Below the pieces are notes generated by a model that ran no database searches, was not told the origin of the DNA, and saw nothing but the letters and a program-made list of their open reading frames with translations. Both the position numbers and the translations under genes were made by a program. From Myxococcales bacterium (lineage in GTDB: Bacteria > Myxococcota_A > UBA9042), in contig PBTG01000079.1 in NCBI GenBank assembly GCA_002726535.1, positions 9,615 to 73,614 on the forward strand: DNA of 64,000 nt, written 5' to 3'. Of this stretch, positions 3,525 to 38,635 are shown in pieces; position 1 is the first letter of the stretch; each line of letters opens with the position of its first letter.

Positions 3525-3692
3525 TCCGGGTTCTGAAAGGAACAGGTAGACTAAAAACGTCCTTTACACAGTTCTTGTCTCCAAAACGGACGGTTTAAGT
3601 AACCCCTAGGGCGGCCTGAGAACCCGCTCTTTTTTTATCGTCTTTCGGAAGCCTTGGGCGACCGGGCAGATGCCCACCGCGAAAATCGCCTT

Positions 3693-6617
3693 ATGGCATT
3701 CGGGAAGATTTACGTCGACGAGGTTATCGACTCAAATGGAGACACTCTCGACATTTCAGAACTCACCTCCAACGAGGCGACTAATGCAGCTAAGGGCTAC
3801 TTATCAGCAGCAGACAAGGCCAAGCTTGATGGTGTTGCTGCAGGTGCAGAGGTCAACGCAGTCACAAGCGTTAACGGCTCGACGGGTGCCGTCACTGTTC
3901 AGGGCTTCTCAGGCGATTATGCAGACTTAACTAATAAGCCAACAATTCCAACAATTGACCCAAATACTGTTATCGACAGCGGCTATGTAGCAACTGACGA
4001 GAACTTCACAACGTCAGACCACAGCAAGCTGGATGGCATTGAGACTGCAGCAACAGCAGACCAAACCAAAGCAGATATTGATGCACTAAATATTGACGCC
4101 GATACCCTTGATGGACAGCATGGTTCTTATTATACTGGTTATACAGACACGGCAGTTGCGGGTCTCGTATATTCTTCCCCAGCCACTTTAGATACATTAA
4201 ATGAATTAGCAGCAGCTTTAGGGGATGACCCTAATTTTGCCACTACAACTGCCAACAGTATTGGCACTAAGTTGTCAAAATCTGGCGGTCAGATGACGGG
4301 GAATATAACGTTCTCTGGGTCACAAACTGTTGATGGTAGAGATTTATCTGCTGATGGGGCCAAGCTGGATGGCGTTGCCGCAGGTGCCCAGGTCAACGCG
4401 GTCACATCGGTGAACGGCGCAACTGGCGCTGTCACGGTCCAGGGCTTCTCTGGCGCGTACGCCGACCTAACAGGCAAGCCAACGTTAGGCACTGCAGCAG
4501 CTACAGCATCCAGTGCCTACGCCACATCGACCCAGGGTGCTACGGCCGACAGTGCTCTACAGCCAGGGGACGCCAACCCTGTGATGGTTTCTGCTGTTGG
4601 AGATCTCCCCAGCGCATCATCGAATCATGGAGCAGTGATTCATGTCCACAATGAGGGCGCGATGTACTTCGCTCACTCAGGCTCATGGCACAAGCTGCAG
4701 AACGAGTCCTCGGCTTTCTCTGGGTCATACAGCAACCTGAGCAATAAGCCGACGATCATTGCGAACACCTTCAGCACGTCAGCACCCTCATCACCTAGTA
4801 CCGGTGATCTTTGGGTAGACACAACAGACACCCCTCCGGTCCTGAAGTCGTACAACGGCACAGCATGGGTTGCTGTTGGATCTGCAGGTTCCTCAACGAG
4901 CGCACCTGTGATCAATGGCGTGACGTTGTCAGAAGTTGACAGCTCAGGTGATCGCTTCACTAGCGAGTCCTTCACTGTCGCGGTCAATATGCTCGACGAT
5001 GGCTCTCCTATCAGTCAGAAGGGCGTCAAGGGCAAGGTCACCGCAACATTCGAGCAGTTCCCAGTAAGTAACGCTATTACGGCTGGGACGGTATCTACTT
5101 CCCAGACTAGTGAGGGCAATACGACTAAAGATAGTTCAACCAACCTGACACACAACGAGAGTACGGGGGCAGTCTGTTTCAACGTCGTAGACACAAGCAC
5201 TAATTCGGTTAGGTGCTTTATGTGGTATCCCGAGGGCAGCGGTAGTAGCTACGACGATATGTTAGAGAACAGCGGGAAAGATCTGTTAGCTTATACCAGC
5301 GTCGATAATGACTTTTACGGCACCGGTGAATACAAGCAGGGATTAGCCGGTGTGCAAAATAGATTGGGCACCTGGGTAAATATTATGGGCAGGCACAACA
5401 ATGTACAAGCGGCCTTCGAGGTGTCCGGGCTTCTGTCGGGCAACCCTGTAAGGTCAAACAAGAACGAAGTGTCGACAGATGCCTATATATATGTTTCTAA
5501 TGGAAGATCGTTTACTCGATATGATTTAAACCGACAAAATGGTATTAGTTTGTTTTTGGGAGGCGTTCCCTATAGCGGTGGTGGCGGCCCATACTTCATG
5601 GAAACCTTGAGCGATAGGATATTCATTGTCTCACAAAGTAGCACCAGCGGTTCTCTTTGGACTAAAGAGCTAACAGACGCTGCCAGTGCCAACTTGTCCA
5701 ACGGCAACTACATTTACCAAGATAATAATCAATCGGGCTTCAACCGGTACGACATAACGGGCTGCATTTTTCACAAAGGAAAAGTATTAATAAGTAAGGG
5801 CATTAACGGGGGCGGTATTTACGCATTTACCCCAGGCACCTCAAGTCCTACGATTTCAGGCATACCAGCGGCACCTTCTGGTTATCAAAATACTTACGGT
5901 GCGATCTGGGAAGATCCCCTTGGCAATTTAATACTTAGGACAACACACTTTAGCACCGATTGGTCGACTCAAGCTGCTTTCTACTATTCGAGTAACAACA
6001 ACGGCGCGACATGGGTTGCTAATCACTACCCATACGATTCAAACTTTAATTATGAGTATTGGACCCCAGACCTCTACCTATACGGACGGCGTCAAAAGTC
6101 CAAAAGAATAAAAGGCAGCGGCTTATCTGCCACTGTGACAAAGCAGGTCTACACAATACGCTCTCAGACGCTCACCGTCACAAATGGAGCAGATCTGAGT
6201 TCCCTGAACGTTGGAGACATCGTTAGACCGCCCGGCGAGACGGATCCACTTAAGTACTCAAAGATTGATTCAATCTCTTCGAATGGCAATGGGACGACAA
6301 ACGTTGTAGTCAATGGCTTCAATGATTTCGCTGTAGGCGATGTAATTGAGTCCACCGCATCCACCGGATCTGCTACCTCGACGAGGTTCCTCGTGATCAA
6401 TGCTCAGGGCGCCATTACGACCCATCAAGTCAGCGACCCTGGCTTTGTAACTCAAGGCCCTGGAGCGTCACACACGATCACGTTCCCTGCGACGTTCCCT
6501 ACAGGTAACTCTCCAGATGATGAGCTACCTAGTGGAACAACAATCCAGGTCGACGTCCAGGCCGTCAACTCTGAGGCCTCTGACACCTACGCATCCAACA
6601 CCCTCACCCCTTCCTAA
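3693..6617 (+). CDS. Large tail fibre / receptor-binding protein, paralogue A (frame open from TTG 3654; first ATG 3693)
   Basis: Two copies of a ~50-aa KLDG(V/I)xAGAxVNAVTSVNG(S/A)TGAVTVQGFSG repeat. Central region has Asp-box-like SNNNGATW. The C-terminal 80 aa is nearly identical to paralogue B (..ITFPATFPTG..DDELPSGTTIQVD..NTLTPS). The conserved 5' UTR is shared with 6642-6700. Confidence 0.65.
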   Translation: MAFGKIYVDEVIDSNGDTLDISELTSNEATNAAKGYLSAADKAKLDGVAAGAEVNAVTSVNGSTGAVTVQGFSGDYADLTNKPTIPTIDPNTVIDSGYVATDENFTTSDHSKLDGIETAATADQTKADIDALNIDADTLDGQHGSYYTGYTDTAVAGLVYSSPATLDTLNELAAALGDDPNFATTTANSIGTKLSKSGGQMTGNITFSGSQTVDGRDLSADGAKLDGVAAGAQVNAVTSVNGATGAVTVQGFSGAYADLTGKPTLGTAAATASSAYATSTQGATADSALQPGDANPVMVSAVGDLPSASSNHGAVIHVHNEGAMYFAHSGSWHKLQNESSAFSGSYSNLSNKPTIIANTFSTSAPSSPSTGDLWVDTTDTPPVLKSYNGTAWVAVGSAGSSTSAPVINGVTLSEVDSSGDRFTSESFTVAVNMLDDGSPISQKGVKGKVTATFEQFPVSNAITAGTVSTSQTSEGNTTKDSSTNLTHNESTGAVCFNVVDTSTNSVRCFMWYPEGSGSSYDDMLENSGKDLLAYTSVDNDFYGTGEYKQGLAGVQNRLGTWVNIMGRHNNVQAAFEVSGLLSGNPVRSNKNEVSTDAYIYVSNGRSFTRYDLNRQNGISLFLGGVPYSGGGGPYFMETLSDRIFIVSQSSTSGSLWTKELTDAASANLSNGNYIYQDNNQSGFNRYDITGCIFHKGKVLISKGINGGGIYAFTPGTSSPTISGIPAAPSGYQNTYGAIWEDPLGNLILRTTHFSTDWSTQAAFYYSSNNNGATWVANHYPYDSNFNYEYWTPDLYLYGRRQKSKRIKGSGLSATVTKQVYTIRSQTLTVTNGADLSSLNVGDIVRPPGETDPLKYSKIDSISSNGNGTTNVVVNGFNDFAVGDVIESTASTGSATSTRFLVINAQGAITTHQVSDPGFVTQGPGASHTITFPATFPTGNSPDDELPSGTTIQVDVQAVNSEASDTYASNTLTPS

Positions 6618-6624
6618 GACATCA

Positions 6625-6644
6625 GGGGCTTCGGCCCCTTTTTT
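6625..6644 (+). terminator. Rho-independent terminator
   Basis: GGGGC-TTCG-GCCCC followed by TTTTTT, immediately after the stop of the fibre gene. Confidence 0.7.
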
Positions 6645-6699
6645 ATTGCTTATTCGGAAGCCTTTTGCGACCGGGCAGATGCCCACAGCTCACCCGCAA

Positions 6700-9570
6700 A
6701 TGTCGGATTCCTACGGAAAAATAAAAGTCGACGAGATCGAAAATTCAGACGGAACTCTGCTCGATCTAACGACAGCAGTGACGACAGAAGCGACGACCTC
6801 AACGAAGGGCTACTTATCCGCAGCAGACAAGGCCAAGCTCGACGGTATCGAGGCCGGCGCTGAAGTCAATGGGGTGACTTCTGTCAACGGCTCGACCGGG
6901 GCCGTGACCATTCAGGGCTTCTCTACAGCAAACAATGCCAAGCTCGACGGGATCGAAACAGGGGCTACGGCAGATCAAACTAAAGCAGATATTGATGCGC
7001 TGAACGTTGACGCAGATACCCTTGACGGTCAACACGGCTCTTATTACACAGGCTATGCGGATACAGCAGTTGCAAGCCTTGTAGATTCGTCTCCTAGCAC
7101 TCTTGATACGCTTAATGAGCTTGCCGCGGCACTTGGTGATGACCCTAACTTTGCGACTACGGTAACCAATAGTATTGGCACTAAGTTACCACTTGCTGGT
7201 GGTCAGATGACGGGAAACATAGCGTTTTCCGGGTCACAAACTGTTGATGGTAGAGATTTATCTGCTGATGGTTCTAAACTTGATGGAATCTCTGCAGGTG
7301 CAGAGGTCAACGCAGTCACAAGCGTTAATGGTGCGACGGGTGCCGTCACTGTTCAAGGATTTTCAGGCGATTACGACGACTTGACTAATAAGCCAGACGG
7401 CTCAGGTTCAGGATTAGATGCTGACAAGGTTGATGGTCTTGAAGCAACTAGTTTCTTAAGATCTGATGCTAATGCTACTTATAACGGTGGTATGCTGACC
7501 ATCAGGTCAAATAGTAACGTCGGAAATTACTGGGCAACAGGTATAGAATATGACAGTGGATGGAAGCATACAAACGCAAATAGTTGGGGATTTGCTTTTA
7601 GGAATAATGGAACCAATGGTTTGCAAATTAAAGTCGCTTCTGAAGCAGGAACAAACCAAAGTGCTGCAACTTACAGGGTGCTGGATATTGGTGGCGCTAC
7701 TCAGAGATTAAAATATGACAACTATGATGTTTGGCACGCAGGAAATTCGACCCCCATTGAGAATGCTTTTGGGTCTTCAGCGCCCTCATCACCTAGTACC
7801 GGCGACTTCTGGGTAGACACCACAGACGACCCCCCGGAGCTCAAGTCATACGATGGTACGGCCTGGGTCCCCATGGGCTCCTCAGCTCCAACCGTTAGCG
7901 CTCCAATCATCAACGGCGTCACGCTGGCAGAAGACAACACGTCCGGCGCTCGCTTCACGAGCAAAGGATTTACGGCAACGATCAACATGCTCAACGACGG
8001 CGCCCCTATTAGCCAAAAAGCTGTAAAGGGCAAGGTCACCGCAGCATTTGAAACGTTCCCAGCTATGCCCGCTGCGTCCTCCAACAGCAGCTCGAGTTAT
8101 GCGAACGGATCTTCTCTTACCGTTCTCAACCGCTGGCAGGTCGACGCCGACGGTGTTCGGATACCAGTCAACGAGCCAGGTCGCAGAGGCTTTCTGACCC
8201 TTTACAGATACGCAGCCAATAATTCGACGGCGCAATCTTTCTACTTCTCCGACGACATGGATATGGAATGGTATAACAGTGGCACCCTGCTTCTCAGTGA
8301 TTTCGGAAACCAAACCACGAAGCCGACATACACAAACATCGTACATCCGACTAACAATAACGCGATAACCCTATACAACGCCTACACTAAGGACAGGGCT
8401 TATGTGATGTACTGGGACGCGAATGGTGCCTTCCAGGTTGCCAATCAATTAGGCGGCCAGGTACTCACTGATCCAGACAATCCGAACAGCGAATATTTTC
8501 AATGGAGCAGCCAGACTAATGGGAGCATGAAAAGAATGGACAAGTATCCCAGCCCAACTACGACCACCACTTCTAACGGCGCCAAAAACTCACTCGGTTT
8601 GTATAACGTTGATGATACGTTTGCTGTAGGGAATGGCATCATTGTTGCCGCAGGACGCAGCTCGGGTGGTAACAATTATCGACCCACTATCTTCACCCGC
8701 CCCGTCAACTTCGGCCAAAACTCCGGCCCTACTAGCTACTTTTTCGGGGCATCGTCAAACAGGAACATTAACTTCATTAAGTACGTGAAGGGCTACTTCT
8801 GGCTTGTCGATAATTCAGAATTGTTCCGGTCATCCACGGGAGCACAGAGCAGTTGGACGTCTATTAATACTAGCTATAACGGAAATGGTCAAAAGCTTAA
8901 GGACATAACAGTCGACCAGAACGGGCACCTGGTCGGCGTGTTCGTCCAAAACAGCAACGGCTCCTCCCGGATGATGAAATCCAATAACTTTGGAGCTACC
9001 TGGGTCTTGTACGGCAGCCTGTCGAACCCTCCTACGAGCGAATATCAGTCCGTTTTCGTTGCAAACAACAGGATTTACGCCTCGGTTCACACCCATTCTG
9101 CGACGATAAACTGGGCCAAGGTAAACACTCAGACAGTCACAGTCTCATCGACTGGCGGTGATTACAACGAATTCAACGTGGGTGACCTTGTCAAGCCTCA
9201 AGGCTCAACCGACTCAGGCGACGTCGGCAAGATCGAGTCAATCTCCGGCACAAGTATTGGCCTCGACTCCCAGTATCTCTACCAAGTGGGAGATGTAATT
9301 GAGGCGACCAACTCAACAGGAACCGCCACCGCGACCCGGTATCTCGTGATTAGCGGGACCGGTGCTATCTCGACCCATCAGGCGAGCGACCCTGGATACG
9401 TGACTCTCAACGCTGGCACCTCCCAGACGATCACCTTCCCCGCAACATTCCCGACAGGCGAAACACCTGACGATGAACTGCCCAGCGGAACGACCATCCA
9501 GGTCGACATCCAGGCGACCAACTCCCAGGCCTCCGACACCTATCCATCCAACACCCTCACCCCTTCCTGA
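6700..9570 (+). CDS. Large tail fibre / receptor-binding protein, paralogue B (alternative ATG 6679; ORF track starts 6517 overlapping upstream gene)
   Basis: Its N-terminal KLDG/VNAVTSVNG repeats and C-terminal 80 aa match paralogue A. The central ~650 aa differ and contain Asp-box-like SNNFGATW. The stop overlaps the downstream chaperone start (TGATCATG). Confidence 0.65.
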   Translation: MSDSYGKIKVDEIENSDGTLLDLTTAVTTEATTSTKGYLSAADKAKLDGIEAGAEVNGVTSVNGSTGAVTIQGFSTANNAKLDGIETGATADQTKADIDALNVDADTLDGQHGSYYTGYADTAVASLVDSSPSTLDTLNELAAALGDDPNFATTVTNSIGTKLPLAGGQMTGNIAFSGSQTVDGRDLSADGSKLDGISAGAEVNAVTSVNGATGAVTVQGFSGDYDDLTNKPDGSGSGLDADKVDGLEATSFLRSDANATYNGGMLTIRSNSNVGNYWATGIEYDSGWKHTNANSWGFAFRNNGTNGLQIKVASEAGTNQSAATYRVLDIGGATQRLKYDNYDVWHAGNSTPIENAFGSSAPSSPSTGDFWVDTTDDPPELKSYDGTAWVPMGSSAPTVSAPIINGVTLAEDNTSGARFTSKGFTATINMLNDGAPISQKAVKGKVTAAFETFPAMPAASSNSSSSYANGSSLTVLNRWQVDADGVRIPVNEPGRRGFLTLYRYAANNSTAQSFYFSDDMDMEWYNSGTLLLSDFGNQTTKPTYTNIVHPTNNNAITLYNAYTKDRAYVMYWDANGAFQVANQLGGQVLTDPDNPNSEYFQWSSQTNGSMKRMDKYPSPTTTTTSNGAKNSLGLYNVDDTFAVGNGIIVAAGRSSGGNNYRPTIFTRPVNFGQNSGPTSYFFGASSNRNINFIKYVKGYFWLVDNSELFRSSTGAQSSWTSINTSYNGNGQKLKDITVDQNGHLVGVFVQNSNGSSRMMKSNNFGATWVLYGSLSNPPTSEYQSVFVANNRIYASVHTHSATINWAKVNTQTVTVSSTGGDYNEFNVGDLVKPQGSTDSGDVGKIESISGTSIGLDSQYLYQVGDVIEATNSTGTATATRYLVISGTGAISTHQASDPGYVTLNAGTSQTITFPATFPTGETPDDELPSGTTIQVDIQATNSQASDTYPSNTLTPS

Positions 9571-9921: not shown

Positions 9922-12900
9922 GTGTCTGAAGCAAAGAAACTCGACGCTCGGATGCTCCAGTGGCAGGACCAGTTAAGCGGCCTGACTGAGACAAACAGGG
10001 AGCAAGTAACACGCACATTGGCGCGTTCAATCAGCGGGACAGTGGCCGATCTGAAAGTTGCCTACAGCAAGTTCAACGCATCAGAAGGAACGAGCAACCG
10101 ATACACCATCGAAAGCCAGACGGTGAGATTCAGAGAGCTCACCAAAGCAGCCGAGGGGTTGATAGGCCCAGGAGCGCTAAAGAACATCAAGGCGATCTAT
10201 GAAAACGATCTAAACGACGCCTACTCGCTCGGGACGTCTGCAAGCAGAGATCTCACCAAGATCGTTGATGGCGCGGACACAAGCGCACAAGCAATGATCT
10301 CGAAGATGCCTGTAGCTGCGCAGGCAGCAGCAGGTCAGAACTTGATGCAGTTCTGGGACAAAGAAAAAGCAGCCTTAACCAACAAAGTCAGAGAAGCGAC
10401 CCTCTCCGCATTGCAGCGCGGCAAAGGATGGGCATCAGCTCAAAAAGACATCGCACAGGCCCTTCGCTCAAGTGGCCAGACAATCCTGAGGGGTAGAGAC
10501 GAGCTCAGCGTCACGGCCCGCGGCGGAATCGTGATGAACCTCGAGCAGCGGGCTGATCTGATCGCAAAGACGGAGATGGCTAACGCTTACATCCAGGGCC
10601 AGATATCGCAGTACAAACAAAACGGATACACACACGGCAGATGGTCGGCCACGGGTGAAAGAACTTGCCCGTTTTGTGTGAGTCGTGAGGGCAACATCTA
10701 TACCCTCGACGAGCTCGAAGGCGCGATCCCTGCGCATCCTCGCTGTCGTTGCACGATCGCCCCTGTCCTTGAGGAGAACGTCAAGAACGTCCAGAACGCA
10801 AGGGACCAGGGAGCGTCGGCGGCCCTGAACCTTGACGACGCTGGATGGACGGCAATACGTCAACAACGATTCAACGAATACCAGAAGTTCACCGGCAAGC
10901 CATTAGCTGATCCATCTAGGTGGATGAATGCGCCTACCAGTCGCCAAAAATTTCTAAACCCCAGGGCACAAGGAGACAAGCCCGCGTGGATGCCGTCGGG
11001 GAATGTTGTGCCAAACCTCGAGGGCGCACAGGCCGCCGCGATCAGAGCAAAGGATCTCGAGGCCGCTTCGAAAGAAGACCAGAAGGATCTGGATGCACAG
11101 AACAAAGAGATCGAAAAGCAGAAGCAAGCCGCGAAGCTGGTGAAAGAGCGCAAGGGCGAGGAGTTCACCTTTAAGCGCTTTAGCGACGCTACCGGCGACG
11201 AACCAGGTCCGGACACGAACTGGACTTCCGAGAGGCAGAAGCTGCACGACAAAATTGTTCAGAACTTCCTGAAGGACGGCAAGAAAAGCGCGACTCCAAC
11301 TTTCACCATGTCTGGCGGCGGCCCGGCTTCAGGGAAGGGCTTCATGCTGAAGAAGACCGGCCTAGATCAACCCGGCAAGGTAGTGATTGATGCCGATGAG
11401 ATCAAAAAGCTCATCCCTGAGTACGCCAAAGCCCAGAAGAAAGGCGGCGATGCACAGCAAGCTGCGGCGGGCGTTGTTCACGAGGAGTCGAGCTATCTCG
11501 CCAAGCGAATCATGGGCGAAGCTTCCAAGCGTGGTTTTGACATCGTTCTCGACGGCACTGGAGATAGCGGCATCAAGTCGCTAACCAAAAAGGTTCAGAA
11601 GATGCGCGATGAGGGGTATCGAGTTGAGGGGAAATATGTCAGCGCAGATACGGAGACCGCTGCACAGCGCAACTGGGATCGCTTCCTCAAAACTGGCCGG
11701 CTCCCACCCGAGTGGATGCTCCGCAATGTTCACGCCGACGTCTCGCGCACTTTGCCTAAGGCAATGCAGGACGGCCTGTTCGATGAGATCGAGCTTTATG
11801 ACACGAACAAGTCAGGGGAGCTGCGCAAGGTAGCCAGCCAGAAGGGCAAAAATAATCCAAAGATCCACGACAGCAAACTTTGGGACGACTTCAAGCGCAA
11901 GGGTGAGGCTGGACTTGTCACAAAAGAGCAGGGCGAGCGGCTAATCGAAGCCCGCAAACTGAAGGTGGACGTTAAAGCCAAGAGCAGCCACGGCAAGCAC
12001 AGCAATGCTCGCGCCGAAGGGGCCGAGCCTGGCCCCGATACCGTGTGGACCCTTGACCGCCAGAAGCTCCATAAGGAGATTGTCGACAAGTTCCTCGCCA
12101 ACGGTGCCAAGTCGGCTAACCCGACGTTCACCATGAGCGGAGGCGGCCCCGCTTCAGGTAAAGGCTTCATGCTGAAAGCCACTGGACTCGACAAGCCCGG
12201 AAAGGTCGTTATTGACGCAGACGAGATCAAAAAGCTGATTCCCGAGTATGCGGATGCCCAGAAGAAAGGTGGCAAAGCCCAACAGCAGGCAGCCGGATAT
12301 GTCCACGAAGAATCGAGCTACCTGGCCAAGCGGATCATGGCCGAAGCTGCGAAGCGCAGTTATGACGTCGTACTTGATGGCACAGGCGATAGCGGGATCA
12401 ATTCGCTATCCAAAAAAGTGCAAAAAATGCGTGACCAGGGCTATCGCGTTGAGGCGAAATACGTCAGTGCTGACACCGAGCTGGCTGCGCAAAGGAATTG
12501 GGATCGCTTCCTGAAAACAGGACGCCTACCGCCCGAGTGGATGCTTCGGAACGTTCATGCCGATGTGTCTCGGACACTTCCCGAGGCAATGAAGAAAGGC
12601 CTATTCGACGCGGTGGAGCTGTTTGACACCAATCTGAGCGGCCAACTGCGCAAGGTCGTCAGCCAGAAAGGCAAAAGCAAGCCCGAGATTCTCGACAAGC
12701 AGTTATGGAACGACTTCCAGAACAAGGGAAAAGCCAAGCAGGTCACGCCCGAGGAAGGCGAGGCAATGATCGCCAAGCGAAAGGCCGAGACCGAGGACCT
12801 CTCAAAGACAAGATCTGCAGGCACAGGCAAAACACCCGCAAAGACAAAGCCTTCCCCCACTAAGGCAAAGGAGAGCGACATGGTTGACCGGGCGACGCGA

Positions 12901-15126
12901 ATGAAGACCAGCGACGTCTTGGCTGATCCCTCCCGCTTCCAGTACAAGGTCAACTCGAACAGCAAGACAGGGGAGGTCGGCTCACTGTCCGGGGTCAAGA
13001 CTTGGAACGAGGATTTGGCAGGCGTTCTTTCGGTCTGGAAGGACCCGGCCAACGGGAAGACCTACGTCATCAACGGACACAACAGGCTTGCGCTAGCAAA
13101 GAAGCTCGGCGCCAAAGAGCTCCCCGTTGTTGTCATTAACGCCAAAGACGCCAAGGCGGCAAGGTCGATCGGCGCGAAACAAAACATCGCGAACGGTGAT
13201 GGAACCGCAATTGATGCGGCCAAGTTCATGCGCGACACCAACACAACAGCGCGAAGCCTGAAGGCCCAGGGCCTGAATTTGAAAGGATCTATCGCTTCAG
13301 ATGGCGCTGCCCTGGCGAACCTGCCCGACCATATTTTTAGGGCCGCTCTTGAGGGCCGGCTGTCGATCAGTCGAGCAGCCGCAATTGGTCGAAGTGGCCT
13401 GTCATCCGGGCAGATGAACAGCGCTTACAACGTGTTGAAGACAAAGCCTTCGATGTCTGTGGGCACTCTCGACGAGGTGCTTTCGAATGCCAGAGCTTCA
13501 GTAACACGCACCACAAGCGAAGAGACACTGTTCGGGACAACTACTACTCAGACTTCGACCCTGGTCGAGCGGGCCGATTTGGCCGCGAAGTTAAAGGCTG
13601 ATATGGGCAAAGAGGTGAGGATCCTCGACAAGGCTGCAGGCCGTGCCGATGTATTGAACAGCAAAGGAAACCGGATTGATGCGGGCAAGGCTCAGGTGAA
13701 GGCGGCTGAAGCGCAGGCACGCCTCGAGGTTTTTGAGCTGACAAAAAACAGTCAGGGTTCGAACCTGAACAAGACGCTGAACGAGGCCGCTTCTGCAATC
13801 CAGGATGCCGGTGGACGCTCGGCCAAGGCTCAGGCCACCAAGACCGGGAGAACAGCCGTCGATCAGGCCCTCGACGCAGAAATTGCAGCAATGAAGAAAA
13901 ACAGCAGCGGCTTACTTCGAAGCATCGCTGACCTCAAAGCCGTGGAGGCCGGCAAGGTCGCCCGCCCGCCCGAGCTCGCACTTGCTGCGGAAGCTCCAGA
14001 CTTGACTATCGACAAACGGCCCACGCGGTTGCTCGATCCGAAGACTGCGAAGGCAGGGTCAATCGGAGCTTTAAGGGTTAATCAAATCAAAGCCGACCCG
14101 AAGCGCTTCCAATACAAAGCCGCAACCGTCGCCGCCACTGGTGAGGTGGGTTCACTCGATGGAGTCCAGCGGTTCGACCCCAATCTCGCCGGAGTTATCA
14201 GCGTGTGGAAGGACCCAGCCAATGGGCAGACATACGTTATCAACGGCCACAACCGCCTAGCCGCGGCGAAGCGATTAGGGGCCGACGATATCGCTGTCAG
14301 ATATCTCAAAGCCGACAGGGCTGAGGATGCACGCTCTATCGGAGCACTGGCCAACATTGCCGAGGGCCACGGAACGGCGCTTGACGCCGCGAAGTTCATG
14401 AGAGCTAAGGGCTACTCCGGCACTGACATGAGGGCGCGGGGAATTGCCATGAAAAAAGATGTTGCCCGTGATGGCGCCGCTCTGGCCAACCTCCCCGAAG
14501 AAATCTTTGGGGATGTGGTGAACGAGAACATCTCAATAGAGAAAGCGTCTGCAATTGGATCCGGCGGACTGGACCGAAAGGGGATGGAGGCCGTCTACAG
14601 AAATCTGAGAACCCGGCCGGCGGCATCCGTGAAAACGGTGACCGAGCTTGTCGCGGCTGAAAAGATGTCGATGGAGATGGGGAGCACCGGCTCGCTATTT
14701 GCTGAATCCGCCGATGATCTGGCCTATCAGATGAACCGGGCCGACTTGACCGGCAAGGTTCGCGACGACTTGTTAAAAGAAAAATCACTCTTTAAGGCGG
14801 TAAGCACAAGCCGGGCGGCTCGTGATCTTGAGAAGGCAGGCTCGACTCTTGACCTGGCAGCCAACAGCAAGGCTGCGGCTCAGGCCGAGACGATCCTTTC
14901 CGTGTTTGATCAACTGAAAAACAGCAGCGGCCCTGTGGCCTCCGCCCTTAGCAGTGGCGCCCGAGATCTCGCTGTCGCCAAAACTGCTGCTGAGAAGAAT
15001 GTTGTCCGCCGCAGAGTGATGGATGACATCTCTAAGGCCGTCGATCAGGAACTTGGCGGAAACCTCGGCAGTGTGGAAGAACCACCTTCGGAGGCTCCCG
15101 GCCAGGAATCCCTGTTCGGGTTTTAA
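9922..15126 (+). CDS. Polyvalent virion protein: MuF/SPP1-gp7-like head-morphogenesis domain + 2x zeta-toxin-like P-loop kinase + 2x ParB-like nuclease domain
   Basis: GTG start. aa 240-280 CPFCVSREGNIYTLDELEGAIPAHPRCRCTIAP is the hallmark C-terminal motif of Mu F / SPP1 gp7 minor head proteins. aa ~425-660 and ~702-940 are two near-identical repeats (period 277 aa) with P-loop TFTMSGGGPASGKGF, VVIDADEIKKLIPEY and VLDGTGDSG (zeta-toxin-like). aa ~995-1190 and ~1385-1580 are two repeats with DP.RFQYK...TYVINGHNRLA(L/A)AK(K/R)LGA (ParB/Srx-like). Confidence 0.8.
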   Translation: MSEAKKLDARMLQWQDQLSGLTETNREQVTRTLARSISGTVADLKVAYSKFNASEGTSNRYTIESQTVRFRELTKAAEGLIGPGALKNIKAIYENDLNDAYSLGTSASRDLTKIVDGADTSAQAMISKMPVAAQAAAGQNLMQFWDKEKAALTNKVREATLSALQRGKGWASAQKDIAQALRSSGQTILRGRDELSVTARGGIVMNLEQRADLIAKTEMANAYIQGQISQYKQNGYTHGRWSATGERTCPFCVSREGNIYTLDELEGAIPAHPRCRCTIAPVLEENVKNVQNARDQGASAALNLDDAGWTAIRQQRFNEYQKFTGKPLADPSRWMNAPTSRQKFLNPRAQGDKPAWMPSGNVVPNLEGAQAAAIRAKDLEAASKEDQKDLDAQNKEIEKQKQAAKLVKERKGEEFTFKRFSDATGDEPGPDTNWTSERQKLHDKIVQNFLKDGKKSATPTFTMSGGGPASGKGFMLKKTGLDQPGKVVIDADEIKKLIPEYAKAQKKGGDAQQAAAGVVHEESSYLAKRIMGEASKRGFDIVLDGTGDSGIKSLTKKVQKMRDEGYRVEGKYVSADTETAAQRNWDRFLKTGRLPPEWMLRNVHADVSRTLPKAMQDGLFDEIELYDTNKSGELRKVASQKGKNNPKIHDSKLWDDFKRKGEAGLVTKEQGERLIEARKLKVDVKAKSSHGKHSNARAEGAEPGPDTVWTLDRQKLHKEIVDKFLANGAKSANPTFTMSGGGPASGKGFMLKATGLDKPGKVVIDADEIKKLIPEYADAQKKGGKAQQQAAGYVHEESSYLAKRIMAEAAKRSYDVVLDGTGDSGINSLSKKVQKMRDQGYRVEAKYVSADTELAAQRNWDRFLKTGRLPPEWMLRNVHADVSRTLPEAMKKGLFDAVELFDTNLSGQLRKVVSQKGKSKPEILDKQLWNDFQNKGKAKQVTPEEGEAMIAKRKAETEDLSKTRSAGTGKTPAKTKPSPTKAKESDMVDRATRMKTSDVLADPSRFQYKVNSNSKTGEVGSLSGVKTWNEDLAGVLSVWKDPANGKTYVINGHNRLALAKKLGAKELPVVVINAKDAKAARSIGAKQNIANGDGTAIDAAKFMRDTNTTARSLKAQGLNLKGSIASDGAALANLPDHIFRAALEGRLSISRAAAIGRSGLSSGQMNSAYNVLKTKPSMSVGTLDEVLSNARASVTRTTSEETLFGTTTTQTSTLVERADLAAKLKADMGKEVRILDKAAGRADVLNSKGNRIDAGKAQVKAAEAQARLEVFELTKNSQGSNLNKTLNEAASAIQDAGGRSAKAQATKTGRTAVDQALDAEIAAMKKNSSGLLRSIADLKAVEAGKVARPPELALAAEAPDLTIDKRPTRLLDPKTAKAGSIGALRVNQIKADPKRFQYKAATVAATGEVGSLDGVQRFDPNLAGVISVWKDPANGQTYVINGHNRLAAAKRLGADDIAVRYLKADRAEDARSIGALANIAEGHGTALDAAKFMRAKGYSGTDMRARGIAMKKDVARDGAALANLPEEIFGDVVNENISIEKASAIGSGGLDRKGMEAVYRNLRTRPAASVKTVTELVAAEKMSMEMGSTGSLFAESADDLAYQMNRADLTGKVRDDLLKEKSLFKAVSTSRAARDLEKAGSTLDLAANSKAAAQAETILSVFDQLKNSSGPVASALSSGARDLAVAKTAAEKNVVRRRVMDDISKAVDQELGGNLGSVEEPPSEAPGQESLFGF

Positions 15127-15141
15127 AAAGTAAACTGAACC

Positions 15142-15381
15142 ATGATCGATCTCAGTAATCAAGCGATTCGCGAAAGTTTCGATGCCATGCTCGAAGCCGT
15201 GTCAGAAGTGATTTCACCGGAGGAGCTAGTGATCTGGCATCACCGGATCGAAAACTGTGACAACCTCAGCCAGGCTGCAGAGGTGACCACCCAGATGATC
15301 GGCCGGCCGATGTCAGACGAGGAGCGACAGGAGGCTGACGAGGTCCGCCAGTCGCTAATCCTGTACGGAGAGGATCTTTGA
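15142..15381 (+). CDS. Hypothetical small acidic protein
   Basis: ORF track. The ATG lies 16 nt after the stop of the polyvalent gene. No recognised motif. Confidence 0.35.
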   Translation: MIDLSNQAIRESFDAMLEAVSEVISPEELVIWHHRIENCDNLSQAAEVTTQMIGRPMSDEERQEADEVRQSLILYGEDL

Positions 15382-15466: not shown

Positions 15467-15667
15467 ATGGCTCTCTATGCCGACGAGATGGAGAAGATTG
15501 TCACCCAAGTAGCTCGCGGTGAAGAGCCACAGGTCCGCGAATCGAAAGATGCGGCGGAATTCCGTGAGGGGGTCACCAACGAAATCGAAGAAGCCCGCAA
15601 GATCGCAGAAGAGCGCGGCCTCGACTTCATGGTCGAGATCATTAACGAGACTCCAGAGATGTGGTGA
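15467..15667 (+). CDS. Hypothetical small acidic protein
   Basis: ORF track. Strong RBS AGGAGG 8 nt upstream. Preceded by the TTGACA-N17-TAAGTT promoter at 15409-15437. Confidence 0.4.
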   Translation: MALYADEMEKIVTQVARGEEPQVRESKDAAEFREGVTNEIEEARKIAEERGLDFMVEIINETPEMW

Positions 15668-15738: not shown

Positions 15739-15984
15739 GTGACTCAGTCCGTAAACATCCTGCGAATCGTTTTTAATTCCGGCCGAGTCGTCGAAGAGCG
15801 TGGCGGAGAGGACATGATCATTGCTCTGTTTGCGCGAGACATTGAGGGCTTGATCGATTACATCATGGCTATCGATATGAGTGATGGGAAAGTGAATATC
15901 TACTGCGACGAAGACGACCAGCGATTTAATAACACTGAGGTCTTGATGTCGACGGATGTCCTCAGGTGGAACCGCCGGAGCTGA
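15739..15984 (+). CDS. Hypothetical protein
   Basis: ORF track only. Confidence 0.3.
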   Translation: MTQSVNILRIVFNSGRVVEERGGEDMIIALFARDIEGLIDYIMAIDMSDGKVNIYCDEDDQRFNNTEVLMSTDVLRWNRRS

Positions 15985-33694: not shown

Positions 33695-36600
33695 GTGGCT
33701 GTTTTTCCTGATCGTATTGTCCAGAAAAACAGCACAGATCCTGCCGGTTCGGTAAGAACTGCTGTCGATCCCGTGATCGGTTCAGACCCAATCATCGGCG
33801 GTGAACTTGTAGTTCAAAGATCTATTGGCAGCGCTCAACTACTCACTCTTGATGCTAATAATACTCCAGTAGTTGTAGGCGTTTCGGCAAATGTTGGAGC
33901 GACCACTCCATCGATCAAGCTGAATTTTGAGGAAGATGGCACCGATACGCCGTATGAATATGTTGTCGGCGGATATCCTTTCGACCCCAGCGGCAAGTTT
34001 GGCAACTGTTATAAACACATTGCCGGCAGCACTTCCCCACGAATCAATCCCCTGAGAATCCAGGCCGAGAATGTGCCTGTCCTAGGGAGCGAAACTTGGA
34101 CATTTAACTTCTGGTTTAAAAGCGATTTTACTTTTGACTTTTACAGCCACTTCGACCCCGCCCCAAACAGCCTGCTAGTTGTTTCGGCGAGAGACTATGT
34201 CCATGGACCTGGAGCTTTCACTGTCACGATTGATGGTGGCACAACTGACACGGGCGGGATCGGCACGGACACAAGTCGCACGGCGGACCTGGCTAAGGGC
34301 GCGATCGTGTTTGGCCTGGGTGGCATGTACGGCGCGACAGAAAGCACCATCCCTCAGATCCCCTCCACAGGCGAGATCGTCACTTCTGCTGCGACTGGTG
34401 TCTGTGACAACAACTGGCACTACATCACCTTCATGCACGAGGGCAGCGGGGTTTACTCCTGTTTCATTGACGGCGAACTGAAAGAAAGAAACATCCTCGA
34501 CAGCCCCGTCAATTACGGCGACTCAGGAACTTCAGGGATCTTGATGCCCTCGGGTCTCGAGTTCGGTGGAGCTCTTCAGATCAATGACAACGACGTATTT
34601 CCTGGATCAGAGTTTTTCGGATTCAACGGCAGGCTTGATGGTGTCACGTTGTATGCCGGCAACGCCATTTTTCGGGGATTGCGTCAGTTCACAGTCCCCA
34701 CCTCTGCTCCAAACGACGACCCAGTACAGCAACCCCTAGACACGCTCAGGACACTCCTCGACACGGGCATCGACGCAATCCCAGGTAATGGCGAAACGCT
34801 TGTCTATAACGCCACGGAGGGCGCCTGGGAGAACTCACCAGCTCCAGCATTCAGCCTCACTGGCAACAACCTTGGAGATATTGGAGACGTCACCATCGCG
34901 GCAGTCGCCTCGCTGACTCAAGGCGAAACGATTACGTGGGATGTCGCGACCTCTAATTGGATCAACAGCCCGATCCTGATCGAAAACACCGACGTCGATA
35001 CGACCCTTACGGGCACGGGATATGTGATCCGCCACGACGGTTTGACCGGCTGGAAATCAGAGCGCCTCGATTACGCCGATCTGAGCAATGCCCCTGCAGC
35101 TCTGAGCGACCTGACACAAGACCTGGATTTAAGTCTCTACAACGTCGTTGACCTGGCCGATGTTGTTGTTACCTCGATTCAACAGGGCGACGTCCTCGCA
35201 TGGAACGACGCTAATAGTCAGTTCGAAAACATTGCTCAGCCACCGGCAAATATCAGCGGAAGCAATCTCGACGAACTTCTCAATGTCAAAACGTTCGCCG
35301 ACGTAAGTCAAAGCGTTTTAAACACTTACACCTGGTTGGCATGGAATGCGATCGACGCCAAGTGGGAGCCGAGAACTCTTGAATACACTGAGGTGTTTGA
35401 TGCACCTGCAGACCTAAGCGATTTCAACAACGACCTAACTCTAAATAGTTTCACCAATGACGCTGGTTATCTTTCAGCGGCAAACCTGTCGACGTTCTCT
35501 CTCAACTCTTTCGGCGATGTAACTATAACCAGCCCTGTCGAATCTCATGTCCTGGTTTACAGGTCCGGTCAGTGGCGCAATGAGGTTGGCCCACCGGCAA
35601 ACATCACGAGCAACTCAATCGGTGACCTTGCGGACGTCACTAAAACTCAGGCAGCCAATACCTTGCCGGCGGTGGTGACCATGGAGGACATGGGCCACCT
35701 GGTCTTTGACAGCCCTCTGCTCGCGTCAAATATCACTTATCAGGTGATGTACGACCACGACCGATTAGGTCTTGGCCTTTCGGCTATTCGTGACTCTGAC
35801 GACACGGGATCCGAGATCTTCGTTAGCCGTGGTGGTGGTGTTGACCTTCGCTCAGACGTCAACTTCTTCCGCCTACGCGGCAAGCCTGATGTAACAACCA
35901 ACAGACCCGAACTCCGTTTCGAGACTGGTGATTCTTTCGCTACCCCTGCGACAGGTCACTACATCTCACTCAAGATGCCCTCCACGGTCCTTGAAGATCA
36001 GACCTATTACTTGCCCCAAGAAGATGGCGACGTCGGCGACGTGCTCGCTACTAACGGAACAGGTGAGCTGTCTTGGATTGCTCGCGCCTCGAACAATGAT
36101 CTGGGCCAACTGAGCGACGTCGATCTGAGCACTCAGTTACCAGTCGACGGCAGCGCGTTAATTTACAACTCAGCGGCCTCGATGTGGGTTCCTGGAGCCA
36201 GCGTCACAGACCTGAGCACGTCAGTTTTGAATGACATCTCGGACGTCTCTTATGGAGGCACACCGGGGACAGGTCAGGCATTGCTATGGAACGGCAGCGC
36301 CTGGGTGCCGAATGACATTGCGGTCTCGCTCGACGACCTGGCTGATGTCACCTTCTCAAACGGGGCGTTCACTGCCACTGGACTGCAGGCGATTGTCCTC
36401 GAGGACACGGCAGGCACTGGGTTCATTGGGTTCACCTCACCCGCGAACTACAACGCGACCGTTCTTTATACGCTCCCCGTTGACGACGGGGCAACAGGTG
36501 AGGTGCTCACCACTAACGGATCAGGGGTCCTCTCCTGGATCGAGCCCGGAGTTGATGAAGCATCCCCTGCGATTGTTTGGGACGTAACAAACGTTGGGGT

Positions 36601-37441
36601 CATTGCTTACGGGTTTACCGGCTCAGGCTTTTCGACTACGACAAGCAACCCGGCCCTTTACGTGGTGCGCGGTCAAAAGTACACGTTTAATAAGACAATC
36701 TCTGGCCATCCGTTCGAATTGGTCGAGGCCGATGGTGTTACCCAGTACACCGCCGGAGCTGTAGAGAGTCAGCCCCTGGCCCTGGGCGAATTGAACTGGA
36801 CGGTGCCGATGGATGCACCCTCAACCCTTGGCTACCGATGCACGGCTCACCCGTTGATGAAGGGGATCATCTATGTCTTAAACGCTGGCGTCGACCTGGC
36901 CTCGTCGAACATCGAAGAGCTCGCCAATGTCTCGTCAACCGCCCCAACCGCGGGCCAGGCTCTTGTGTGGAACGGCACGGAGTGGGTCCCTGGGTCCGTC
37001 CTCAGCTCTGGCAGCGCTACCGGATCAGCGATCAGCCAGTCCGTAACTGAGACACAGGTATCCGATGCGAATGGTTTCTTGACCTTCATCGACCTGGGCA
37101 CCTCTGGAACGTTGATCGATATACAGGCAGGCGCTGAAGCGTGGGTGACTATCTATTCATCAGTAGCGACAAGGGCCGCGGACGCCGCAAGAAGCCTCGA
37201 GGAAGATCCTGCACAAGGGTCGGGAGTCCTTGCGGAGTTCGTTATCCCCGCATCGACAACAGTGCTGACAACGCCGAGCACCAACTACTTCAATTCGGAG
37301 GGACTCATCTCCGAGTCGATCTATGCAGTGGTTCGCAACCCCTCGACAGCAGCCGCGCTCAATAACGTCTCAGTGACTGTCAGGGCGTTCGCGATCAGCG
37401 GTTACACCGCAGTCTCTGGAGGCACTTTCGGCAGCGGTTGA
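33695..37441 (+). CDS. Tail fibre / host-specificity protein (1248 aa) with LamG-like domain, LSDL-type short repeats, an embedded cupredoxin-like domain and a C-terminal shared module
   Basis: GTG start. N-terminal motif DRIVQKNSTDPAGSVRTAVDPVIGSDP..GGELVV. aa ~130-260 WTFNFWFK..WHYITFMHEGSGVYSCFIDGELK fits a LamG/ConA-like jelly roll. Repeated ..LSDLTQDL / ..ADLSDFNNDL units. aa ~958-1062 carries cupredoxin ligand motifs. C-terminal ~110 aa is homologous to two modules in 37472..38635. Confidence 0.7.
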   Translation: MAVFPDRIVQKNSTDPAGSVRTAVDPVIGSDPIIGGELVVQRSIGSAQLLTLDANNTPVVVGVSANVGATTPSIKLNFEEDGTDTPYEYVVGGYPFDPSGKFGNCYKHIAGSTSPRINPLRIQAENVPVLGSETWTFNFWFKSDFTFDFYSHFDPAPNSLLVVSARDYVHGPGAFTVTIDGGTTDTGGIGTDTSRTADLAKGAIVFGLGGMYGATESTIPQIPSTGEIVTSAATGVCDNNWHYITFMHEGSGVYSCFIDGELKERNILDSPVNYGDSGTSGILMPSGLEFGGALQINDNDVFPGSEFFGFNGRLDGVTLYAGNAIFRGLRQFTVPTSAPNDDPVQQPLDTLRTLLDTGIDAIPGNGETLVYNATEGAWENSPAPAFSLTGNNLGDIGDVTIAAVASLTQGETITWDVATSNWINSPILIENTDVDTTLTGTGYVIRHDGLTGWKSERLDYADLSNAPAALSDLTQDLDLSLYNVVDLADVVVTSIQQGDVLAWNDANSQFENIAQPPANISGSNLDELLNVKTFADVSQSVLNTYTWLAWNAIDAKWEPRTLEYTEVFDAPADLSDFNNDLTLNSFTNDAGYLSAANLSTFSLNSFGDVTITSPVESHVLVYRSGQWRNEVGPPANITSNSIGDLADVTKTQAANTLPAVVTMEDMGHLVFDSPLLASNITYQVMYDHDRLGLGLSAIRDSDDTGSEIFVSRGGGVDLRSDVNFFRLRGKPDVTTNRPELRFETGDSFATPATGHYISLKMPSTVLEDQTYYLPQEDGDVGDVLATNGTGELSWIARASNNDLGQLSDVDLSTQLPVDGSALIYNSAASMWVPGASVTDLSTSVLNDISDVSYGGTPGTGQALLWNGSAWVPNDIAVSLDDLADVTFSNGAFTATGLQAIVLEDTAGTGFIGFTSPANYNATVLYTLPVDDGATGEVLTTNGSGVLSWIEPGVDEASPAIVWDVTNVGVIAYGFTGSGFSTTTSNPALYVVRGQKYTFNKTISGHPFELVEADGVTQYTAGAVESQPLALGELNWTVPMDAPSTLGYRCTAHPLMKGIIYVLNAGVDLASSNIEELANVSSTAPTAGQALVWNGTEWVPGSVLSSGSATGSAISQSVTETQVSDANGFLTFIDLGTSGTLIDIQAGAEAWVTIYSSVATRAADAARSLEEDPAQGSGVLAEFVIPASTTVLTTPSTNYFNSEGLISESIYAVVRNPSTAAALNNVSVTVRAFAISGYTAVSGGTFGSG

Positions 37442-37471: not shown

Positions 37472-38635
37472 ATGGCGGACTTCATCGCACGGATCAAACC
37501 AAAAAAGAGCTCCGTATCAGGTGAAGTCCCCACGGCCTCAGACCTCGAAGTCTCCGAGATTTCAGTTAACACCGCCGACGGCAAGCTGTTCGTCAAGCAC
37601 ACCGACGGCAGCATCAAAGAGATCAGTGGATCGAGTGGCGCCAGTGACGGATCAGTCAGAACAAGTGATCCACAAATCACCACAGCAGCGCTCGCTCAGT
37701 ACGCATCAGAAGACGCCACCTTTGGTCAGACCGGCAGGGCTGGGCAGTTCCTGAAAATCGAGGCAAGCTGCGCCTCATGGGTCGTCTTCTATTCGAGCAG
37801 GGCTGCGCGCACTGCTGACGCAGCAAGAGCATCAGACGAGAACCCAGCCCAGGGCGTCGGCGTACTGATGGAGGTTTTCACCGATCAGGCTGAGACCGTT
37901 CTGATCACGCCGTCTGTTCTCTACTTCAACGACGACGTCAACGAAGGCGCCGAGGTCTACGCAAAAGTCGTCAACCAAGACGCGACAACTCAAGCGGTCA
38001 CCGTCACGGCCACCGTGGTCCCTATCGAAGGACGCTCCCTATACGAAGCAGAGGGGACAGCTCGGATCAAGGGCCTAAGTGTCGAGTCGGCATCGCTGGC
38101 CACGAACGCATCAGAGTTTTTAACGCTTAAGCAGACCGCACGATCTGGCCAGTTCACAAAGATCTCGACCTCAGCAGCGGCCCGCGTAATTTTTTACAGC
38201 ACGACAGCAGCGAGAACAGCCGACTCGTCAAGGCAGCAAGGTTCGACTCCCTTGGCTAGCTCCGGCGTGTTGATGGAGGTGGTCACCGCAGGCGCTGAGA
38301 CGTTAGAGATCACTCCAGCAATTCTCTATCAAAACTCTGAGCCAGGCGCAGCCGGCGAGCTCTACGTGAGCGTGACGAACCTGGAGACAATTGCAACCGC
38401 AATCACTGTCACCGTTGACGTCGTACCCATCGAGGGACGCGGTGCATATCTGAGTGAGCTGAATGAACTACTCGATGTCGACACTACGGGCGTAGCTAAT
38501 GGTGACGCGATCGTCTACGACGCAGCAGCATCGAAGTGGGTTCCTGATCAGCTCATCAGCCTGAGCAGCTTGAAAACTGAGGTGGCGGCTGCTTCTGATT
38601 TCGCCGACTTTCAGTCGAGGATCGCGGCGCTCTGA
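37472..38635 (+). CDS. Tail fibre protein with two tandem ~105-aa shared modules
   Basis: N-terminal anchor motif IARIKPKKSSVSGEVPTASDLEVSEISVNTADGKLFVKHTDGS. Two internal repeats (..GQF.KI..S.A..V.FYS..AARTAD..R......GVLMEV.T..AET..ITP..LY.N.....E.Y..V.N.......TVT..VVPIEGR). C-terminal GDAIVYDAAASKWVP. Confidence 0.6.
   Translation: MADFIARIKPKKSSVSGEVPTASDLEVSEISVNTADGKLFVKHTDGSIKEISGSSGASDGSVRTSDPQITTAALAQYASEDATFGQTGRAGQFLKIEASCASWVVFYSSRAARTADAARASDENPAQGVGVLMEVFTDQAETVLITPSVLYFNDDVNEGAEVYAKVVNQDATTQAVTVTATVVPIEGRSLYEAEGTARIKGLSVESASLATNASEFLTLKQTARSGQFTKISTSAAARVIFYSTTAARTADSSRQQGSTPLASSGVLMEVVTAGAETLEITPAILYQNSEPGAAGELYVSVTNLETIATAITVTVDVVPIEGRGAYLSELNELLDVDTTGVANGDAIVYDAAASKWVPDQLISLSSLKTEVAAASDFADFQSRIAAL

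Follow-up and report, generated by a model that had tools for sequence, protein, structure and literature searches.

In a 64,000-nucleotide (nt) stretch of contig PBTG01000079.1, from an assembly recorded as a Myxococcales bacterium (hereafter the window, in whose own numbering all coordinates are given), one long phage gene holds two different kinds of effector module, each of them twice, which raises the question of whether these repeats were formed recently and in place, as a preliminary description of the sequence had claimed, or are older. The encoded polyvalent protein combines a MuF head-morphogenesis domain, two Zeta-toxin-like kinase units (Z1 and Z2) and two modules with a predicted ParB fold (B1 and B2). 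We consider it probable that it is a virion-carried effector in which both module pairs are old head-to-tail duplications, kept by selection and moving between phages as cassettes. The parts of the gene, in nt and in amino acids (aa), are as follows.

9922..15126, forward strand: polyvalent MuF-family effector gene, a single open reading frame (ORF) of 1734 aa with a GTG start
9922..11031, forward strand: N-terminal MuF/SPP1 gp7 head-morphogenesis (trafficking) domain, aa 1-370 (PF04233 and PHROG)
11137..11961, forward strand: Zeta-toxin-like kinase unit 1 (Z1), aa 406-680, core aa 423-679 (PF06414)
11962..12786, forward strand: Zeta-toxin-like kinase unit 2 (Z2), aa 681-955, core aa 698-954 (PF06414)
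12877..13941, forward strand: ParB-fold module 1 (B1), aa 986-1340 (envelope of the hidden Markov model, HMM), from its predicted fold
14047..15123, forward strand: ParB-fold module 2 (B2), aa 1376-1734 (HMM envelope), from its likeness to B1

Both intragenic tandem repeats are indeed present within the one ORF. They were compared segment against segment, the whole-protein self-BLASTP having given the self match alone, and repeats of this size were out of reach of Tandem Repeats Finder with its longest period of 500. By BLASTP, Z1 (aa 423-679, nt 11188-11958) and Z2 (aa 698-954, nt 12013-12783) aligned without gaps and were identical at 201 of 257 residues (78%, E 2e-153), and B1 (aa 994-1279) and B2 (aa 1384-1670) shared 45% identity over 289 aa (E 1e-73). 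The offset of the kinase repeat is 275 aa (825 nt) and not 277 aa (831 nt) as first given, and when the homologous linkers are included the units aa 406-680 and aa 681-955 join exactly head to tail. For the ParB-like copies, which are offset by ~390 aa, the initial period of 1170 nt and the starts were right, whereas the ends were not; each module is ~355 aa long, and the units run from about 12877 to 13941 and from 14047 to 15123, not from 12904 to 13491 and from 14074 to 14661. Both repeats are thus head-to-tail intragenic duplications of whole effector modules, and the kinase pair is, as had been noticed, far less diverged than the ParB-like pair (78% against 45% protein identity).

The kinase copies had been characterized as near-identical with only scattered substitutions, which their DNA shows to be overstated. 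Nucleotide identity was 71% across the full 771 nt and 75.5% across the best 608 nt, identity at the three codon positions was 82%, 88% and 43%, and the longest identical run was 14 nt. By the Nei-Gojobori method the proportion of synonymous differences (pS) was 0.75, which is saturated, and the nonsynonymous divergence (dN) was 0.176. The third-position identity of 43% compares with 28% expected from composition, and of 191 degenerate sites with identical residues 79 shared the codon, against 73.8 expected from random draws on the codon usage of the gene. Even a stretch of 30 aa that is identical in the two proteins showed 77% DNA identity and 37% identity at third positions. Since the number of shared codons is close to random and pS reaches 0.75, the silent sites have been randomised, and the likeness of the two proteins is, judging from these comparisons, maintained by purifying selection. 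Randomised silent sites in a protein under selection exclude, for practical purposes, both a recent event and an assembly artefact.

Further evidence on both points came from relatives, which were collected in a search of 5.8 billion proteins (39 relatives) and whose modules were mapped with HMMs built from the window copies. A recent tandem amplification of the kinase module within this phage genome, as formerly concluded, would fit the gapless head-to-tail arrangement, the 78% protein identity and the occurrence of one to three kinase copies among relatives, but it is made highly improbable by the randomised silent sites, by the limit of 14 nt on identical DNA, by a separate orthologue of each copy in relative P0006, by a junction and an indel common to three lineages, and by an identical architecture in an independent assembly (protein P0001, also 1734 aa, which differs from the window protein at 5 residues). 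We give almost no credence to a collapsed or expanded repeat introduced by assembly, for which nothing speaks beyond the presence of repeats; the nucleotide comparison that had been proposed as a check found copies far from identical (71%), the frame is intact over 1734 codons, and the same architecture was seen in P0001, in P0002-P0006 and in the IMG/VR contigs L002 and L003.

The relationship to P0006 provides a relative date for the kinase pair. In neighbour-joining (NJ) trees, Z1 of the window grouped with Z1 of P0006 and Z2 of the window with Z2 of P0006, each with 100% bootstrap support, and the identities between these orthologues were 88% for Z1 and 94% for Z2. Since each copy has its own orthologue there, the pair is older than the split from the P0006 lineage. 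Moreover, an alignment that includes the linkers showed the 275-aa period to be common to the lineages of the window and P0006, of P0007-P0009 and of P0002/P0003, with a junction that can be aligned across all of them (…EARKLK…SH.KHSNAR…). Two residues ('AR' in Z2) are inserted in the downstream copies, which read SNARxxG where first and single copies have SNA--xG, and the residue before the HEESS motif is Tyr or Phe in downstream copies (Tyr in Z2) against Val, Leu or Gln in first and single copies (Val in Z1). The common period, junction, indel and aromatic residue favour one origin of the Z1-Z2 junction in these lineages, and the pair would most likely have been formed once, in the ancestor of these three sampled lineages. 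As for the ParB-like pair, all B1 copies formed one clade (98% NJ bootstrap) and all B2 copies another (96%), which indicates that the two modules were already paired in the ancestor of every carrier and constitute an ancient conserved two-module cassette. The family-invariant motifs were unchanged in both halves of all eight two-module proteins (8/8).

The distribution of modules among the relatives was as follows.

Window, P0004 and P0005: MuF domain, two kinase copies, two ParB-like copies
P0002 and P0003: MuF domain, three kinase copies, two ParB-like copies
P0006-P0009: MuF domain, two kinase copies, no ParB-like copy
P-SS2 (a cyanophage), P0020 and P0022: MuF domain, one kinase copy, no ParB-like copy
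P0010-P0012: MuF domain, no kinase copy, two ParB-like copies
P0013-P0031 except P0020 and P0022: MuF domain, no kinase copy, no ParB-like copy
P0032 and P0033: no MuF domain, one kinase copy, one ParB-like copy

Different parts of the window protein resemble different relatives. Its aa 1-370 were 83-89% identical to P0013-P0015, with the likeness ending at aa 370 and the remainder unrelated, aa 33-950 were 79% identical to P0006, which is without the ParB pair, and aa 976-1733 were 52% identical to P0010, which is without the kinase. This segment-wise likeness defines the gene as a MuF head, a kinase-pair cassette and a ParB-pair cassette, and on comparison of the relatives these three parts recombine independently. 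The GC content along the gene is flat (0.55-0.58) and gives no hint of recently imported cassettes, and megablast with the gene as query gave no match in 50,697 phage records.

The search for single-copy versions that had been suggested succeeded, as P-SS2, P0020 and P0022 each carry one kinase module. The related idea that effector domains are being amplified in situ stood at the level of the family, in which the kinase occurs in zero to three copies, but not for the window, where the pairs were inherited as ready-made cassettes. With a threshold of E <= 1e-3, a HMMER scan of 1.84 billion cluster representatives returned 5058 proteins related to the kinase module, and among the best 150 of these, a ranking by summed score that favours two-copy proteins, 20 of the 146 newly returned proteins carried two full kinase modules, mostly directly adjacent. 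In most of these 20 pairs the two copies were mutually nearest relatives, with 26-73% identity. Tandem pairing of the Zeta-like kinase is thus, as far as sequence comparison can tell, clearly recurrent across the family. With regard to hosts, P0020, with its MuF domain and single kinase, comes from a Synechococcus sp. SYN20 record in which the longest contig with P0020 measures 2.73 Mb, and a member of this phage group may persist, as prophage or relic, in a cultured host.

The identities first proposed for the two module types were borne out. The Pfam family Zeta_toxin (PF06414) matched the kinase region in two stretches with 168.7 bits (cut-off 22.3, E 1.4e-49). The P-loop GGGPASGKG lies at 11314-11340 in Z1 and at 12139-12165 in Z2, the motif IDADEIKK of Z1 lies at 11386-11409, and both copies retain GGGPASGKG, IDADE, HEESS, LDGTG and RNWDRF...GR. 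In a phmmer alignment to 1GVN, the catalytic Asp of zeta (IDNDTFK) corresponded to IDADEIK and the Walker-B-like EGTG to LDGTG in both copies; hence the P-loop Lys, the catalytic Asp, the Walker-B-like LDGTG and an Arg-rich segment are conserved in Z1 and Z2. The Gly-rich loop and its Lys are kept, but the P-loop ends in GKG in every copy of the clade, compared to the pattern GxxxxGK[S/T], and the more distant relatives P0032, P0033 and P0038 have GKS or GKT. The window kinases thus share the Zeta_toxin profile, the P-loop Lys and the catalytic Asp with the kinases of the epsilon/zeta and PezAT systems (PDB 1GVN and 2P5T), but differ from them in being a domain of a virion-type protein, in being present twice, and in having GKG instead of GKT. 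Furthermore, no recognisable epsilon antitoxin accompanies them, just an unrelated 66-aa acidic ORF that co-varies with the kinase.

Pfam gave no family for B1 or B2 at E up to 10, ParBc (PF02195) included, and none of the 46 members of their family matched ParBc or ddrB-ParB at E up to 0.1. We base the assignment on structure prediction. An AlphaFold2 model of B1, built on the 46-sequence family alignment, had a predicted local distance difference test score (pLDDT) of 89 and a predicted template modelling score (pTM) of 0.78, and the top 29 Foldseek matches to it in the PDB were ParB, Noc, KorB and Spo0J proteins (best E 3e-6), covering the ParB N-terminal and helix-turn-helix domains over ~210 columns with target template modelling (TM) scores of 0.55-0.59. 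A phmmer comparison of B1 with Noc gave E 0.0025. According to the model, the second effector module type has a ParB/Noc/KorB fold, arranged in B1 as a ParB-type N-terminal domain, a helix-turn-helix region and a helical tail; a β-hairpin and long helices come after the two matched domains. The motifs INGHNR and DAAKF are conserved in both modules, with INGHNRLA at 13069-13092 in B1 and at 14239-14262 in B2. At the positions of the ParB motifs GERRxRA and ENLQRE the family has invariant N-G-H-x-R and N-I-A-x-G, so that the stretches aligned with the two motifs are GHNRLA and NIANGD or NIAEGH, respectively, and keep just one Arg and the Asn. Hence, while the N-terminal and helix-turn-helix domains of the CTP-dependent clamps ParB, Noc and KorB (PDB 7NFU, 6T1F and 8QA9) are the best structural matches of B1, the modules described here differ from these clamps in their low identity (16-19%), in lacking the GERRxRA and ENLQRE motifs, in having two modules per chain, and in having no ParA partner. 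A DdrB-like ParB identity was also tried and rejected; PF18763 matched P1 DdrB (E 2e-39) and not B1 or B2, and hhalign of the family alignment against DdrB gave a probability of 0.3%. A large PHROG family annotated as 'portal protein' matched B1 and B2 each with its tail, and weak ParB-like matches were seen as well. Members of the ParB-fold family also stand alone, as proteins of 350-620 aa on many phage-sized metagenomic contigs, and occur at ~36% identity in Prochlorococcus podoviruses (P-SCSP1). A weak Ribosomal_L9_C match was seen in 19 of the 46 family members (best E 6e-4).

Three very acidic small ORFs follow the effector gene, with isoelectric points (pI) of 4.1-4.4 against 8.6-9.9 for the effector modules, and two of them vary with the cassettes.

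15142..15381, forward strand: 79-aa acidic ORF, pI 4.1, which accompanies the ParB-like pair; candidate cognate partner or inhibitor
15467..15667, forward strand: 66-aa acidic ORF, pI 4.3, which accompanies the kinase module; candidate cognate partner or inhibitor

Homologues of the 79-aa ORF (46-53% identity) were found downstream in each ParB-pair locus checked (L040/L041, L042 and L044) and in none of nine loci without the ParB pair, and tblastn of this ORF against the phage records gave no match. The 66-aa ORF had homologues (55-92%) downstream of every MuF-kinase gene checked (L001-L005, L042, L043 and L050-L052), that of P-SS2 being gp033 (61%), and was lacking in the kinase-free MuF loci (L039, L040/L041, L044 and L045). 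Two of these loci, L039 and L045, are the nearest relatives of the window by MuF identity and have genes further downstream in common with it, yet they are without the 66-aa ORF. The next ORF (15739-15984) was present in most of these MuF-family loci whichever cassette they carried. Neither the 79-aa nor the 66-aa ORF belongs to a Pfam or PHROG family, and no homologue of either was detectable in L046 and L047, which are distant non-MuF loci with one ParB-like module and one kinase. By analogy, the layout resembles that of toxin-immunity cassettes. We can only tentatively suggest, and think it on balance unlikely, that the small acidic genes are cognate inhibitors moving with their cassette, the 79-aa product acting on the ParB-like pair and the 66-aa product on the kinases, with copies of the 66-aa gene found away from any kinase serving as orphan immunity. 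If this were true, such solo copies would neutralise the injected kinase of superinfecting siphoviruses, and a single inhibitor for two or three kinase copies would explain the high protein likeness of the copies. In a sizeable set of marine viral contigs (IMG/VR L006-L033), a single kinase 47% identical to Z1 had no MuF domain detectable upstream on the same strand, and a weak homologue of the 66-aa ORF (32-35%) was located 1.3-3 kb away on the opposite strand.

The N-terminal part of the protein points to a place in the virion. Pfam Phage_Mu_F (PF04233) matched aa 154-279 (nt 10381-10758) with E 6.6e-12, and the first 650 aa fell into the 'minor head protein' family of the PHROGs. With tail-fibre-like genes upstream, and the tape measure and tail genes downstream, the effector gene lies within a siphovirus-type phage structural region. 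The closest protein of a cultured phage is ORF030 (gp030, 1499-1500 aa) of cyanophage P-SS2 (PSS2), which matched the MuF and kinase parts at 46-71% identity but has a single kinase, no ParB-like pair and a different C-terminal part. Among the proteins of purified P-SS2 particles, ORF030 gave the heaviest detection, with an average of 96.5 peptides (PMC2784084), and by analogy we infer that the window protein travels inside the particle and enters the host. MuF fusions of polyvalent proteins are held to be head-packaged effectors that go into the host along with the DNA, and the fusions named include those with zeta-toxin-like kinases (Iyer et al., 2017; PMC5512222). Polyvalent proteins and MuF polymorphic toxins (Jamet et al., 2017; PMC5576092) are described as having an N-terminal MuF domain followed by several effector domains, and the window protein resembles them in its conserved N-terminus and swappable C-terminal cassettes. 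Repeated copies of one domain are also on record for polyvalent proteins, with up to 12 ART copies and with duplications of jhp1044 (PMC5512222). The ParB-fold module differs, however, from the DdrB-like ParB domain reported in that paper. In the passages of PMC5512222 and PMC5576092 that were searched, neither a tandem kinase pair nor a conserved pair of ParB-like modules came up, and the paper by Jamet et al. (2017) makes no mention of zeta or ParB.

Taken together, we propose that the MuF/SPP1-gp7 head domain would bring the protein into the capsid, from which it would probably enter the host together with the DNA. There, the kinase modules may act by phosphorylating a nucleotide-sugar of the host or a metabolite related to it, and the ParB-like modules may bind DNA and/or NTP. 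Since their duplication, purifying selection would have kept both copies of each pair with intact catalytic motifs, and candidate reasons for keeping two copies are the dose per virion, a split specificity (Val or Tyr by HEESS) and an intramolecular pairing or single-chain dimer. The pairs would travel as cassettes through recombination just past the MuF domain and between the cassettes, each effector type probably being accompanied by a small acidic partner gene of its own.

Several observations weigh against this interpretation. P-loop kinases normally have Ser or Thr at the P-loop position after the Lys, and with GKG in place of GK[S/T] in all copies of the clade full kinase activity is not assured. 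A joint model of B1 and B2, built on 8 sequences only, reached a pTM of 0.42, which lends no support to a defined intramolecular pairing or single-chain dimer. In a reverse test on the 66-aa gene, one lineage adjoined MuF-kinase genes, whereas homologues in two others (L048:8001-8201 and L049:8001-8201, 74-76% identity) had no kinase in their flanks (3-8 kb), one lying beside the PglZ/BrxL/Mrr (BREX) defence genes and the other on a contig of 222 kb that also carries a Photo_RC (psbA-type) gene; these solo genes could be orphan inhibitor copies or have an unrelated role. As to age, the kinase copies form a star-like tree in which those of the window and P0006, four in all, are not supported as a clade (2%) and copies group within lineages, so that the tree alone cannot separate repeated duplications or gene conversion from one old event. 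Finally, the divergence of copies dates the sequences and not their joining, and an unequal crossover between diverged alleles of two phages would yield diverged copies immediately.

A reading of some weight, though to our minds less plausible than not, is that the kinase pairs go back to several independent duplications, or that an old pair was homogenised per lineage by gene conversion, the two-copy state being re-created time and again because it is advantageous. The copies of P0004/P0005 grouped together with 100% bootstrap support, those of P0007-P0009 with 77%, and Z2 with Z3 of P0002/P0003 with 75%, and the mutually nearest copies in most of the 20 further tandem pairs follow the same pattern. 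The pair of P0004/P0005 has a period of 317 aa, and both of its copies have the long linker form and lineage-specific insertions; from their sequences, these two copies look re-duplicated or homogenised. The copies in the window are, however, orthologous to those of P0006, their junction, period and indel recur in P0007-P0009 and P0002/P0003, and no conversion trace survives in the form of identical DNA beyond 14 nt. Alternatively, the second kinase copy might stem from unequal recombination with a diverged phage in a co-infection, in which case the copies were already different when joined. Z1 is as close to the single kinase of P0020 (79%) as it is to Z2 (78%), and cassettes clearly move between phages, but the same data fit an old duplication equally well and the junction common to three lineages makes the joining event old in any case, and we regard such a capture as rather improbable. 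A single old duplication of the kinase module, inherited as a cassette, is thus the reading that we prefer.

For the field, the main lesson of the kinase pair is that likeness at the protein level can badly mislead on the age of internal repeats in phage effector genes, since 78% identity here goes together with fully randomised silent sites. Polyvalent MuF proteins, fusions with zeta kinases and domains in multiple copies are already described, and the known picture of polyvalent proteins is unchanged; a modest added interest lies in a ParB-fold family without a Pfam model and in small genes linked to cassettes. What is documented here is that tandem pairs of Zeta-like kinases recur in large phage proteins and that a ParB-fold family outside Pfam is conserved as a fixed two-module unit. 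The co-varying small acidic genes offer an experimental way into the question of how toxins delivered by virions are kept from doing harm during assembly or are countered by hosts.

Duplication was also seen elsewhere in the window. The ORFs 3654-6617 and 6517-9570, whose listed coordinates overlap by ~100 nt, are adjacent large tail-fibre-like paralogues, 57% identical across 491 aa and 52% across the final 209 aa, and represent a tandem duplication at gene level. The adjoining ORFs 33695-37441 and 37472-38635 have repeated segments in common (36-47% identity) and match the same PHROGs (9627 and 15343); these are probably repeated receptor-binding or fibre domains.

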